DNA from: Nitrosopumilaceae archaeon
Lineage (GTDB): Archaea; Thermoproteota; Nitrososphaeria; Nitrososphaerales; Nitrosopumilaceae
DNA length: 64,000 nt
Direction of reading: 5' to 3'
NCBI GenBank assembly: GCA_965203465.1
Contig: CBDBCR010000001.1
Location: forward strand, 480,001 to 544,000
The notes under the pieces were generated by a model. That model searched no databases and was not told the DNA's origin. It saw nothing but the letters and a program-made list of their open reading frames with translations. The translations under genes and the position numbers were made by a program. Shown piece after piece: positions 20,077 to 60,541 of the stretch. The first letter of the stretch is position 1. Each line of letters starts with the position of its first letter.

Positions 20077-20271
20077 TTGATGCCCAAGTCGCCCAACCCG
20101 TTCCTGAACCTTCCGGAGGACAAGCTGGCCATGGTAAGGGAGTATTTCCTAAAGTCCGAATTCGCCGGCCAGATGGACTTTGAGCGGTATCTTGCGTGGC
20201 TGCACGAGGACGATCTGATCCCGGAGGACGTCTTTGCCGTAATCGAACACGAAAACACCGACCCAAGATAG
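20077..20271 (+). CDS. Small acidic hypothetical protein, possible antitoxin
   Basis: 64-aa acidic ORF directly upstream of a RelE-like remnant. Confidence 0.45.
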   Translation: MMPKSPNPFLNLPEDKLAMVREYFLKSEFAGQMDFERYLAWLHEDDLIPEDVFAVIEHENTDPR

Positions 20272-20362
20272 TGTATTCCTCCGTAGAAAAGCTGCTAGCG
20301 GACTTGAAGAAAGACTAAGTGCGGGTTGCTTGGAGCCGCGCTCCACGCCACGGGAATGCACA

Positions 20363-20591
20363 ATGAGAGATCGGATCGTTGTAAAGGAATCTCAGTTTAG
20401 GCGCCGGTACAAGCGCTTGGGAGATCCGAGGCAAGCGCGCGTAGATCTGGCAATACGGGCTCGACCCGGCAAGCACGGGCGCCTCAAAATTCCTAAGGGC
20501 GTTTGCGCACGAGATCGACAAATCAGACGGGCTGATCTCCCATATCAAATCTTCCCGGATTGACGGGCCACTGCAAACGAGTGTGTGCTCA
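20363..20591 (+). pseudogene. Degenerate RelE/ParE-like toxin, frameshifted and cut by IS110
   Basis: MRDRIVVKESQFRRRYKRL...ARVDLAI, then in another frame DPASTG...AFAHEIDKSDGLI, then KRVC at the IS junction. Confidence 0.5.
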
Positions 20592-21206
20592 GTCAGGCGG
20601 GCGGGCTTTGGCCGCCGCCGCTTTATACTTTCGCTGCACTAGATCCTTGTCCTGCGTCCGGTATTCGGCCATGTCGGTCAGTATGTGCCAGACTACCTCC
20701 GTCAGGCGGCGCGCGATGGCCACCCTCGCTTTCTTTTTGCCTATCCTTTTCGACAGCCGCTCGTAGGTCGAAGACATTCGAGCGTCGTAGCGCGCCGCGA
20801 CGTTGGCCGCCTCCACCATGGCGTTCCTTAACCAGACGGACCCCTTTTTGGTTATGCCGCCGCCGCGCTTGGTCTCGCCGCTGTTCCGGTGGGACGGAGA
20901 AAGGCCCGCGTACGAGACGAGTTTTTCGGCCGTCCTGAATCTCTTTACGTCTACTATCTCTGCGATTATGGTCAGCGCGGTAACGTATCCTATTCCGGTG
21001 ACCGTCATGACGAGCTTTGCCCTATCGTCGTCCATGCATTCGGAAGATATCTCGCGCTCCAGCGTTTCCGTCTGTTTCTGCATCAGCTGCAGCGTGTCGA
21101 GGTACGAGTCCAGCGACAGCCTGTCCACCGGCGAGACGCTTACGGTTCGCATCCACTTCAAGTTGGTCTTTGAGAATTTCGTCTTTGTGGGAAGCTTGTG
21201 CTCGTA

Positions 21207-22316
21207 TAGTTCTGGACAAAAGTTCGCCGTCAAAACTTGGCGTATCTTTTCGGGCGCTGGTTCATGCACTTGATCGGATCTATGTTGTAGTGCACGGTCC
21301 TGTAATGCTCCGACAAGTCTTTGCAAAAGTCTTCGAACGATGCGTGGTACTTGTACGAGACGCTCGATCTGCTCTTGACTAGCCACATGTGCTCGGCCGG
21401 ATTCACGTACGGCGAACCGACGGGCGTATACCGCAAGACGATCTCCGGGTTGTCGCGCAAAAACTCCTGAACCTTGCGCGATTGGTGGTACGACGCGCGG
21501 TCTTCGTATATGAGGAGCGGCCCGAACCGCCTGTGCGCTTCCTTGAGAAAATCGATGAACGTGTCGGAGTTGGCCCTGTCGTACAGCCGGACCATGTGTC
21601 TTGTGTCTTCCAGCAACAGCCCGTGCGCCGACACTTTTTGGGGGTCGTTGGTGAAGGTTCCGCTTACCGGCGTGCCTTGCTCCGTCCAGAACAAGGCGTT
21701 GGACTTGTCGTCCCTGCGGTGGTGCGACTCATCCCCCCACCCCACGGTGCGCCCTTTGCGCCTGTGGTAGGCAATAACGCGCCTTTCGCGCTTCTGCCAC
21801 TTGCTCACGGCGGCCGGGCTGGCGTGGTTTACGTGGACGTACTGTATTTTCTTGGGAGAGAGGTTGCGGCCGCGCATGAGCCTCAGGACATGCCTGCTGC
21901 TGTAGCCCACGCCGGTCTTCCGTTTTATCGCGTCGCTGACCTCGTGCGGCCGCACCCGTTTCCGGGACGCGTCGTCTATGATCTTGTTGAGTTTGTCTTT
22001 CCTTACCTTGGGCGGCCTTCCTGCACGCGGACGGTCGCGGAGGGCGTCCAGCCCGCCGCTCTCGTACCTGTCCACCCACTGCCGCACCCAGTCGTCGGAC
22101 ATCATCAGGCTCTGCGCAACATCGTCGACTCGCTGTCCTTGCACCGCCACCATGTTGACGGCCACTATGCGCAGGCTGACCCGGGCGTCCTTTTCCTTCT
22201 TGAGTGCCTTTTTCAGCACCGTTGACGTGTTAGTCATGGGTGTAGCCTGATCCCGTAGTAAATAAGTGCGTGAGAAAAAAATTGTTGACAAACCGACGAA
22301 TTTTCGTCCAGAACTA
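21207..22316 (-). mobile_element. IS630-family element, 1110 bp, 20-bp imperfect TIRs, TA duplication
   Basis: Left end TAGTTCTGGACAAAAGTTCG vs right-end reverse complement TAGTTCTGGACGAAAATTCG (18/20); TA at 21205-06 and 22317-18. Confidence 0.92.
21230..22237 (-). CDS. IS630-family transposase (intact single ORF, 335 aa)
   Basis: HTH with WVDRY..GGLDALRDRPRAGRPP; DDE motifs GDES, EDRASYH, SPYVNPAEHMW. Confidence 0.92.
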   Translation of the reverse strand: MTNTSTVLKKALKKEKDARVSLRIVAVNMVAVQGQRVDDVAQSLMMSDDWVRQWVDRYESGGLDALRDRPRAGRPPKVRKDKLNKIIDDASRKRVRPHEVSDAIKRKTGVGYSSRHVLRLMRGRNLSPKKIQYVHVNHASPAAVSKWQKRERRVIAYHRRKGRTVGWGDESHHRRDDKSNALFWTEQGTPVSGTFTNDPQKVSAHGLLLEDTRHMVRLYDRANSDTFIDFLKEAHRRFGPLLIYEDRASYHQSRKVQEFLRDNPEIVLRYTPVGSPYVNPAEHMWLVKSRSSVSYKYHASFEDFCKDLSEHYRTVHYNIDPIKCMNQRPKRYAKF

Positions 22317-22789
22317 TATTTGGCCAGAAGCGCAGTTATCTTGTTCTTTTGCTCCGTCGCCGTGCGGACCCGGTCGAGCCTGGTTCTGGCCAGGTTGCGC
22401 AGGTTCCTGTAGCGCTCGTCAGGCACGAACGACTCGTAAACCATGTCTAGGAGCAGCAAGTCCGCGAGCACCTCCGAGTCCACCCTGTCGTCTTTCAGTT
22501 TTGCCTCGGCTATGGCTTTGGTCTTGGACGGGTGAGCCAAGATCGTGTCGATGCCGCACTCCTCCAGCGTGTCGTGCAGTATGATCCAGTAATTGCCGGT
22601 CGCCTCGCAGACCGCCCTGGCGTTCTTGCCGTGCGTCTTCTTTACGTGTGCCGCGAACGCCTCTATGTCTTTTTTGCTGTTCTTGAATTCGGTCTGTTCT
22701 ATTATATCCTTGCCGTTTCCTTTTATTGTCGCCGCGCACATCTTTTTGTGCACGTCTATCCCAATGTTGATCAATGTGTCACCTCCTTC

Positions 22790-22975
22790 GAAGCCATTGG
22801 ATTTGTGGATTTGCCCGATTGAGCGGAAAGCTCCCATTCACCCTCTGTGGGGTAGTACCCCGTCCGCCTATTGTTGTGAGTTAGTCTGCCGGTCACCCTC
22901 ATGCGGGGTAAGAATAGTTCAACTCTCGGGCCCATCTCGGAGAGCCATGCTCCCCTCCCAGATAAGATTTGATAC
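22790..22975 (-). ncRNA. Candidate IS110 bridge RNA
   Basis: Non-coding end upstream of the IS110 gene; contains CCGGCAGACT, identical to the reconstructed empty target, plus small hairpins (GGGGTA-C-TACCCC, CTCTCCGAG...CCCGAGAG). Confidence 0.6.
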
Positions 22976-22997
22976 AGGGTCTGCCGGAGTTCCGCTT

Positions 22998-23486
22998 CCG
23001 GCAGGCGAGGATCGCACGCTACCGTTATTACGCGCCGCGCCGTTGCCCGGACATGGCCCTCGGCCCGGATGCTCGCCCCCGCGCACCGGAAGGCAAACCC
23101 GGAGTCTCGGGGAAATCGATACTGGATCTGACCTTGGAGATCTGCTTCAAGAACCCCTTTACACGCGAGACCGGCGTGACGCGCTACGAGGTCATAGAGC
23201 ACGTCCAGACGTGGATGTGGAGCGACGAGATCATAAAGGCCGAGCGCGGCTTTGACGAGTACGTCCGGACCGGCAGGCTCGTCAAGGTCGGACAAGACAG
23301 GGGCGGAGAGGAGTTCTACAAGCTGGCAGAGCATCTGGACTCCCAGCATCGGCGCTAGGCGCATTCGACTGAAGCATGTATTGTCCCCGGGCAGGCGATC
23401 GCGCGCTACCGATATTGCGCGGCGCCGCCTTGGCATGGCGCCCGGCCCGGCTGCCGACCCCCGCGCGCCGGAAGGCAAAACCGGAG
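22998..23486 (+). repeat. Imperfect ~100-bp direct repeat (22998-23104 and 23388-23486)
   Basis: GCAGGCGA...CGCTACCG.TATT...CATGGC...GGCCCGG...CCCCCGCGC.CCGGAAGGCAAA.CCGGAG occurs in both. Confidence 0.75.
23053..23358 (+). CDS. Small hypothetical protein (possible wHTH)
   Basis: 101-aa ORF from the ATG in repeat copy 1; VTRYEVIEHV...FDEYVRTGRLVKVG...FYKL. Confidence 0.55.
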   Translation: MALGPDARPRAPEGKPGVSGKSILDLTLEICFKNPFTRETGVTRYEVIEHVQTWMWSDEIIKAERGFDEYVRTGRLVKVGQDRGGEEFYKLAEHLDSQHRR

Positions 23487-23542
23487 CCGCGCGACAAAGC
23501 CGGCCGCGCGCGGCCTTTTACGCTCCGGCCGCACGGCGGCCA

Positions 23543-60328: not shown

Positions 60329-60541
60329 GTCCAAGCCATTCCGCTTCGCGAGGGCGAGCCGAAGCCCACGATCTGAAACGCACCATGATCGGATCGCGCA
60401 GTCCGGGGGTGCGCGGCAGGCCGGAAAAGGGGCGCCGAGGCGATTGTCCAGGCCGCAGGCAAGACATGCCCGAACCTATTCTGCCGGTCATGGAAGATTT
60501 CGCCCCCGCCTGTCTGATGCGTGGAGGGGAAGGCGAAATTT

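Follow-up and report, generated by a model that had tools for sequence, protein, structure and literature searches.

The window analysed here is a stretch of 64,000 nucleotides from a Nitrosopumilaceae archaeon (GenBank assembly GCA_965203465.1, contig CBDBCR010000001.1, positions 480,001 to 544,000 of the forward strand), and it carries on its minus strand an insertion sequence (IS) of the IS110 family, in which a non-coding end of 209 nt lies upstream of the transposase gene and one of 50 nt downstream. One important question raised by this locus is whether the upstream non-coding end encodes an RNA that guides the element to its target. In IS621, as described in the available text of two reports (PMC11208160, PMC11208158), the two loops of the RNA base-pair with target and donor; pairing to the bottom strand is the task of the left guides, pairing to the top strand that of the right guides, and the core forms part of every guide. 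An initial annotation of the window had proposed a bridge-RNA-like guide upstream of this transposase. That proposal is upheld by the covariation of both the fold and the guides, while the boundaries and the core that went with it had to be revised. On the comparison of related loci, positions 22808-22946 very probably encode a guide RNA of the element that matches both its target and its donor. The small-subunit (SSU) rRNA gene of the host scored 1441.8 bits with the archaeal model and 1088.5 bits with the bacterial model.

Target-loop strands and flanks of the element

Related loci were collected from public genomes. Of these 45 loci, 44 were archaeal, from Nitrosopumilus/Nitrososphaera, Bathyarchaeia and Methanophagales/Methanosarcinales metagenome-assembled genomes (MAGs), and one was a weak match in a Bryobacteraceae bacterium. 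The non-coding ends of 24 elements, namely the window copy, a further copy designated C3a and 22 relatives with 36-66% protein identity, were aligned, and conserved blocks with variable stretches between them were obtained. The variable stretches correspond to both strands of the first internal loop of the predicted fold (the target loop). The 5' strand of this loop is the putative right target guide (RTG) and the 3' strand the putative left target guide (LTG); between them there is a hairpin of 17 nt. A covariance model of the RNA (R1), built from the alignment, detected 41 places in 75 sources, one place in the window and four in the genome. Of 151 genomes sampled from the phylum, 6 contained a match, among them the genome under study.

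Across the family the LTG consists of five variable bases followed by a constant AGAC. The five variable bases and the AG recur directly outside the left end (LE) of the element, about 95 nt upstream, where the end had been placed by a conserved word of the LE and not by the guide. The AC that follows the LTG (22884-22885) is identical to the first two bases of the element, and at one locus (L069) both are AA. Together, LTG and AC form the 9-mer CCGGCAGAC (22884-22892, minus strand). Agreement between LTG and left flank was assessed in 32 events, which were obtained from the 41 model matches by removing 10 (duplicates of the same locus or flank, contig ends, truncated RNAs and weak matches) and adding the flank of a partial copy. 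All five bases agreed in 20 of the 32 events and at least four in 25. The summed agreement was 137/160, compared with a permuted mean of 53, and none of 20000 permutations reached it. When one event was kept for each distinct LTG (18 classes), the sum was 78/90 against a permuted mean of 28.5, and again 0/20000 permutations reached it. The presence of 18 different left guides on one scaffold would represent natural retargeting.

At its end the RTG reads CU, and as a whole it is the reverse complement of AG together with the five bases that lie beyond the right end (RE). For this guide, 26 events with a right end were available, after 15 matches had been dropped. Complete agreement (7/7) was observed in 11 of them, and at least 6/7 in 17. 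The sum of 148/182 (permuted mean 88.6) was reached by 0/20000 permutations, and the same was true when the constant core was left out (106/130 against 58.2). Among the copies of the genome, C3b and C3c fit 7/7, with the flank AATAG, and C3a fits 6/7, with ACTAG. In the Methanophagales clade the core is TG, and it is TG at once in the flank, in the LTG, in the RTG (as CA), in the left donor guide (LDG) described below and in the RE. The guide-target covariation over other copies and their flanks, which the initial annotation had named as a check, is thus present for each of the two target guides.

The same annotation had reported a 10/10 match spanning the core, from AGTCTGCCGG at 22883-92. 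Nine of these bases are real (22884-92 against 22979-87, 9/9: five of the left target (LT), two of the core and two of the element); the tenth had been scored against sequence internal to the element. Since CCGGCAGAC occurs 5 times in the 64-kb window, with 1.36 occurrences expected, the pairing of 22884-92 with the junction rests on covariation and not on chance arithmetic.

Agreement between loop and flank might also arise with no guide at all. If the 9-mer and the terminal CCGGCAG were both parts of the element, forming a subterminal direct repeat that is bound by the transposase and kept alike by concerted evolution, the element would start 7 nt further out. CCGGCAG is the same at the junction in all four genome copies, from which alone flank and element are inseparable, and AGAC, constant across the family, makes up four of the nine bases. 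Against this, CCGGC-AG is found without the element in four perfect 12-nt sites, in the repeat family of these sites and in an IS-free junction from another sequencing run (X5). Besides, copies that reside together on the chromosome of one MAG share their LE and yet differ in the 5-mer outside it, each 5-mer matching the LTG of its own copy, and a pair of empty and occupied alleles (C3:202378 and run X5) has already been seen for the right target (RT) side. A direct repeat does not explain, moreover, why the right flank covaries with the second loop strand in the antisense sense. This explanation is hardly credible in the light of these data, and the two loop strands are treated below as candidate target guides.

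Two further observations concern these guides. A same-sense AAUAGGC at 22869-75 was considered as a second match to the right target and rejected, the aligned bases being conserved in relatives with differing right targets. At two loci on the chromosome of one 'Nitrosopumilus sp.' MAG (L054 and L067), each element has a left guide that fits the flank class of the other (TACAC and TTGAT); either guiding in trans or recombination close to the left end could account for this exchange.

Fold of the candidate RNA

The candidate RNA is about 130-140 nt long and is encoded within the 209-nt 5' non-coding end. In its predicted architecture an outer helix (P0) encloses two modules, one for target binding (P1, P2) and one for donor binding (P3, P4), each of which consists of a stem, an internal loop and a hairpin. 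RNAalifold returned four helices with 17 pairs, 12 of them with compensatory change, and the five-helix structure was obtained by extending these helices and adding the outer helix through reading of the alignment. In the MAFFT alignment, which is not fitted to structure, 86.5% of the cells were paired and 20 of 33 pairs had changed on both sides. The observed covariation score was reached by none of 500 column shuffles, and pairing fell to 26.5-44.4% in the control in which the partners were slid by 1-3 columns. The model-fitted alignment, which leans towards the model, gave 87.9% paired cells and compensatory change in 23 of 33 pairs. G-U pairs are frequent (22/24 at pair 27-75, 16/24 at pair 37-63) and fit the transposase-sense strand only. 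The five-helix fold is supported by this covariation, and the covariance model, a check that the initial annotation had suggested, matches the window at one place, 22808-22946.

The fold changes the meaning of other matches in the initial annotation. Its second guide, GATTGAGC at 22817-24, falls on the junction of the 3' strands of P3 and P0, which is conserved, and the 7/8 match had been scored against element-internal sequence; about two matches of 7 in 8 are expected by chance (~5200 placements x 25/65536). The donor-like resemblance of CCCGTCCGCCT at 22858-68 to the 3' end of the element had likewise been scored against internal sequence, and this segment, which is conserved as well, coincides with P3 (5' strand) and with the beginning of the donor loop. 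The spacing of ~60 nt between guides, which had been taken for a sign of an unusual RNA architecture, disappears when both target guides are placed on the two strands of a single internal loop.

One alternative is that the guides act as folded single-stranded subterminal DNA, as in IS200/IS605, and not as a transcript. Covariation tests do not discriminate between RNA and single-stranded DNA when both represent the same strand. On the other hand, the two-module fold, with its frequent G-U pairs on the transposase-sense strand, mirrors the known RNAs, and members of the family are described, in the accessible text of the respective reports, as co-purifying with RNA of the non-coding end and needing it (IS621, PMC11208160; ISEc11, ISKpn4, ISPa11 and ISEc21, PMC11187229). 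A DNA guide is for these reasons judged very improbable. A second alternative is that the non-coding end is a structured 5' leader controlling translation of the transposase, with the protein choosing the target. Immediately downstream of the structure there are indeed an invariant GGAGGTGA and the start codon, and its folding as a single sequence is not exceptional. Covariation with sequences outside the element on both sides, and with its far end, would not be expected of a leader, and we give this possibility almost no weight. The guide RNA thus remains the preferred reading of the non-coding end.

Donor module

In the second module, the LDG on the 3' strand of the donor loop has the same sequence as the RE end together with the core; this holds for 19 of the 20 distinct end pairs, and three states of LDG and RE change together (ATGGGAG, ATAGGAG and ATGGATG). 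The opposite strand of the loop is less regular. Compared column by column, the donor-loop 5' strand shows partial fits in the window element (with one bulge) and in Bathyarchaeal elements (CCG-A-CU against AG-A-CGG). In the majority of relatives the strand is rich in A and shows no such fit. When this strand was compared with the subterminal repeat, some clades agreed at 5-6 of 7-8 bases, and the window element showed no fit. The strand may be a weak right donor guide (RDG) in the window element.

Several points weigh against a guide RNA at this place. Folded alone, the window RNA adopts another structure, with a minimum free energy (MFE) of -41.5 kcal/mol and z = 0.08, not stabler than shuffles, and the consensus fold evaluates to -33.6 kcal/mol on the same RNA. 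Rfam 15 gave no match over the region (E up to 10) or over the window (gathering scores), and whether Rfam 15 holds a bridge RNA family was not checked. An RDG was not found at a conserved place; in an exact-word scan of seven family representatives against their joined ends, the LDG alone recurred at a constant position. Agreement with the LT was 3/5 or lower in 7 of the 32 events, and agreement with the RT 5/7 or lower in 9 of the 26; the own right flank of the window copy (ATCAG) fits the RTG 5/7 only. Many of the compared elements are kin, so that the counts overstate independence, and the class-level test over 18 LTGs still gave 0/20000.

Ends, core and copies of the element

The genome contains four copies of the IS110 element and one partial 5' end of 104 nt. 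In element orientation, the left junction common to all copies reads ...CCGGCAG|ACCCTGTATCAAATC... (beginning CCGGCAG|ACCCTG), and the right junction in all of them reads ...GATTTGATATGGG|AG|A..., that is, ATATGGG followed by AG. Divergence of the four copies begins only below 20536 and above 22987. Contigs from other sequencing runs break away from the window at 20536/20538 and 22987/22988, and their loose ends are the flanks of other copies. The own DNA of the element amounts to 1330 bp, interrupted by an IS630-like element of 1112 bp. The features are collected in Table 1.

These data replace the boundaries of the initial annotation, which had been drawn at a GTC core and gave the empty site GTGCTCA-GTC-TGCCGGAG. 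The quoted letters are all in place (GTC at 20592-94 and 22979-81, as well as AGTCTGCCGG, GATTGAGC and CCCGTCCGCCT at the positions cited above). Nevertheless, the four copies share 53 nt beyond the proposed left boundary, and the GTC at 20592-94 lies one base after the stop codon of the transposase, inside the element, the true ends being 20539 and 22980 and the core AG. The annotation had held that other boundaries in other copies, together with targets unrelated to CCGGCAGAC, would tell against its proposal: the other copies and the IS-free junction do show different boundaries, and the target is still related to CCGGCAGAC. With the boundaries corrected, several rearranged flanks in the genome are explained.

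In run X5 a contig passes from the right flank of the window copy (window side 20200-20538) through a single AG into the left flank of copy C3c (C3 ~728600), without an element. This junction suggests that flanks were swapped by recombination between copies, that the assembly joined the copies differently, or that the site is empty in that strain. A flank swap or a different joining in assembly would also explain the poor fit of the right flank of the window copy.

Outside the subterminal inverted repeats of the window element the terminal extensions measure 8 and 4; with the outermost mismatched pair included in the repeat, they come to 7 and 3. Exact extensions of 7 (5 plus core) and 3 were found in 11 of 20 end pairs of relatives. 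The subterminal repeats contain AT-rich words resembling a TATA sequence, which is only an idea at present.

Table 1. Coordinates of the element, its candidate guide RNA and the interrupted transposase gene in the window
Feature	Position	Strand	Basis or remark
IS110-family (IS1111-like) insertion sequence	20539..22980	-	Comparison of four copies; break points of contigs from other runs
Left target (LT) flank CCGGC, outside the element	22983..22987	-	In all 5' junctions, the unoccupied sites and the X5 IS-free junction
Core AG, left-junction copy	22981..22982	-	AG on either side of each copy; a single AG in the IS-free junction
Left subterminal inverted repeat TATCAAATCTT	22964..22974	-	Perfect 11-bp repeat with 20543-20553
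Candidate bridge/seek RNA, five helices	22808..22946	-	Model R1 109.7 bits, E 6e-25; pair counts; RNAalifold
Right target guide (RTG) CUAUUCU	22911..22917	-	5' strand of target loop; complement of top strand AG+AATAG
Left target guide (LTG) CCGGCAG	22886..22892	-	3' strand of target loop; same sense as LT+core
Donor-loop 5' strand GGGGUACU, possible weak right donor guide	22854..22861	-	Would pair with AG+ACCCU, provided that one A bulges out
Left donor guide (LDG) AUGGGAG	22831..22837	-	3' strand of donor loop; same sense as last 5 element bases + core
Transposase gene, N-terminal piece	22317..22774	-	TTG start at 22772-22774, preceded by GGAGGTGA; PF01548
IS630-like insertion, flanked by TA, splitting the transposase gene	21205..22316	-	DDE_3 and HTH domains in the encoded protein
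Transposase gene, C-terminal piece with stop codon	20589..21204	-	PF02371
Right subterminal inverted repeat AAGATTTGATA	20543..20553	-	Partner of 22964-22974
Core AG, right-junction copy	20537..20538	-	Copy comparison; X5 contig
Right target (RT) flank ATCAG of the window copy	20532..20536	-	3/5 bases fit the RTG

Empty and occupied target sites

The 12-mer CCGGCAGAATAG (CCGGC-AG-AATAG), which joins both target halves around the core, is unoccupied at four places in the genome, one of them in the window (60476-60487, read on the minus strand). All four empty sites are situated at the 3' edge of a repeat of ~55-60 nt (11 BLAST matches), and beside copy C3a this repeat forms a palindrome of ~80 nt. 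The empty site at C3:202378 agrees with the right flank of the X5 copy in 28 of 30 loose letters, both differences being in the last three. As far as the right side shows, C3:202378 and the X5 copy represent a single site, once as an empty allele and once as an occupied one.

The DNA that encodes the guide in a resident copy looks like a target by construction. Copy C3b stands directly after the 104-nt partial 5' end, which stops at the LTG-coding 9-mer (C3:936988-938420; L003, L005 and L019). The simplest reading of this arrangement would be that the element inserted into such guide-coding DNA and that the two copies then recombined.

The joint expected for an excised circle, from right end to left end (GATATGGG-AG-ACCCTGTATC), was not among the joints in the contigs of the other runs, and contigs cannot show its absence. 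Some additional observations were made on the DNA around the targets. The left target of the window copy forms the 3' arm of a small palindrome (22986-23013, CTGCCGGA-AGCGGAAC-TCCGGCAG), and the targets stand at the foot of hairpin-forming repeats, like those of other IS110-family elements. The left-flank DNA also contains a direct repeat of 74 nt with 78% identity (23036-23109 and 23418-23491, 382 nt apart), and in contigs of runs X4 and X5 a joint goes back 332 there.

Transposase and interrupting element

The two pieces of the transposase gene total 1074 nt, the same as the intact gene of copy C3a, which was used for comparison. Both domains of the family were detected, PF01548 (1.2e-25) and PF02371 (1e-25), each above the curated cut-off. 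The solved recombinases IS621 (2e-16; 63.7 bits) and ISCro4 (1.6e-12) also match the transposase, and in the alignment to them the IGID, EATG, D..VD and SG stretches are conserved. Judged from these alignments, the likeness to the IS621 and ISCro4 recombinases is remote and clear at once.

A split gene raises the possibility that the RNA gene of the window is a relic, the copy being dead through its broken transposase and the match to the flank being only history. The 1112-bp IS630-like element does interrupt the gene, and the right flank of this copy fits the RTG in just 5 of 7 positions. Conversely, the RNA region scores 109.7 bits with model R1, the same as in C3b and C3c, and open frames of 378 codons are present in two other copies of the element, by which protein could be supplied in trans and the RNA of the window copy could act in trans. 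From its sequence, the window copy could be moved only with protein from the intact copies C3:326856 and C3:937090. A relic is somewhat unlikely in our opinion, and it would concern the activity of one copy, not the identity of the sequence.

The joint from 21204 to 22317, which skips the 1112 nt (TA..TA), was found in contigs of all four other runs, and this indicates other copies without the IS630-like insert. The IS630-like element (DDE_3 and HTH domains, TA duplication) is present in 6 full copies in the genome, and its depth in the other runs is far above that of its surroundings. At C1:168967-169968 there is also a diverged relative of the transposase (58% identical) with an open frame; its upstream target module is mostly lost and model R1 does not match it.

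Proposed mechanism

The element is a clear new archaeal example of a mechanism already known from bacteria. From IS621, ISEc11 and their relatives we infer that the guide acts as RNA, that the recombinase binds it, that a circle forms and how the strands are exchanged. The DEDD/serine recombinase and the RNA would hold the joined ends of the excised circle (RE-AG-LE) against the site CCGGC-AG-AATAG, with the LTG pairing with the bottom strand. Strand exchange would take place at AG, and the element would be left inserted with one AG on each side. The two AC bases after the LTG could, by analogy with IS621, pair with the incoming donor strand after exchange, which would be the other strand than in the IS621 handshake.

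Comparison with known systems

The bridge RNA of IS621 (Durrant et al. 2024, Hiraizumi et al. 2024) and the archaeal candidate have several traits in common. Both elements encode a DEDD and serine recombinase with PF01548 and PF02371, and in each the RNA derives from a non-coding end that lies upstream of this gene. In both, a target and a donor module are built from stem, internal loop and hairpin, the left guides agree in sense with the top strand, the right guide runs antisense to it, and the core is part of every guide. The order of the loop strands is reversed, however: the RTG is 5' and the LTG 3' in the archaeal element, whereas the LTG lies 5' of the RTG in IS621-like elements. The archaeal RNA also differs in the outer helix around both modules, in its core (AG, TG in one clade, instead of the CT of IS621), and in the extra two bases, which follow the LTG and match the right side of the donor, while the handshake bases of IS621 follow the RTG. 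In addition, no clear RDG was found in the archaeal element, its subterminal inverted repeats measure 8-12 bp as opposed to 2-3 bp or none in IS621-like elements, and the transposase likeness to IS621 (63.7 bits) lies mostly in the C-terminal half.

In other respects the element resembles the IS1111 group. In the available text of Siddiquee et al. 2024 (PMC11187229), the seekRNAs of this group have the complement of the top strand 5' of the match to the bottom strand, and the group is defined by its subterminal inverted repeats, about 11-13 bp long, beyond which the ends extend by 7 and 3 bases. The guide order of ISEc11, ISKpn4, ISPa11 and ISPst6, as given there, is that of the archaeal element. 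The inverted repeats with terminal extensions of 7 and 3 (core counted on the left), the insertion without duplication beyond the core and the location of targets in repeated palindromic DNA are likewise shared. The main difference is that the long non-coding region of the archaeal element is upstream of the gene (209 against 50 nt); in the text cited, almost all IS1111 members have it downstream, ISMtsp17 being the named exception. ISEc11, the only named IS1111 member compared by tblastn, aligned over residues 114-327 with 24% identity. It is in its ends and guide order that the archaeal element is IS1111-like.

The consulted text of a preprint counts 662 archaeal IS110 recombinases (10.1101/2024.06.21.599552), and that of another reports 86 covariance models, by which 32,190 bridge RNAs in the genomes of bacteria and archaea are covered (10.64898/2026.10.21.760802). 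In the text covered by the literature search there was no explicit description of an archaeal bridge RNA or of this mixed layout; supplements, which lay outside the search, may hold the family, for example the ISfinder-wide tables of Siddiquee et al. or the models accompanying Durrant et al. and the 2026 preprint. The present loci provide a sequence-level example of a candidate bridge/seek RNA from archaea (Nitrososphaeria, Bathyarchaeia and Methanophagales) with exact ends, core, guides and both empty and occupied sites. A compact pair of recombinase and RNA from high-GC and low-GC archaea could be tried as a programmable recombinase.

A bacterial relative, ISAtu7 of Agrobacterium pTiBo542 (named so in the annotation of the record), has a transposase 32.6% identical over 97%. 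Directly upstream of its gene model R1 has a weak match (546-667 of locus L082; 12.3 bits, E 0.031 in a 7-kb search), and the 3' strand of the target loop, GTTGTTATC, recurs 9/9 at 452-460 of the same locus, 142 nt upstream, where the left junction would lie. ISAtu7 differs in being bacterial and in a core that is not AG. The weak model match together with the 9/9 match of guide to flank indicates that the layout is probably not confined to archaea.

Taken jointly, the archaeal clade and bacterial relatives such as ISAtu7 might represent a third layout among the RNA-guided elements of the IS110 family, mirroring that of IS621, in which the RNA lies upstream with the guide order of IS1111, both modules stand inside one outer helix, a two-base handshake on the LTG matches the right side of the donor, and there is no base-paired RDG. 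As a whole we regard this reading as doubtful. If true, the handshake on the LTG would imply that exchange begins with the bottom strand, the donor's right end would be recognised via the subterminal inverted repeat or by the protein, and co-resident copies that differ in their target loops but have one donor loop in common would retarget one another in trans. The mixed layout itself, with the RNA upstream as in IS621 and with ends and guide order like those of IS1111, bears on the divergence of the two groups and on which strand is the first to be exchanged.

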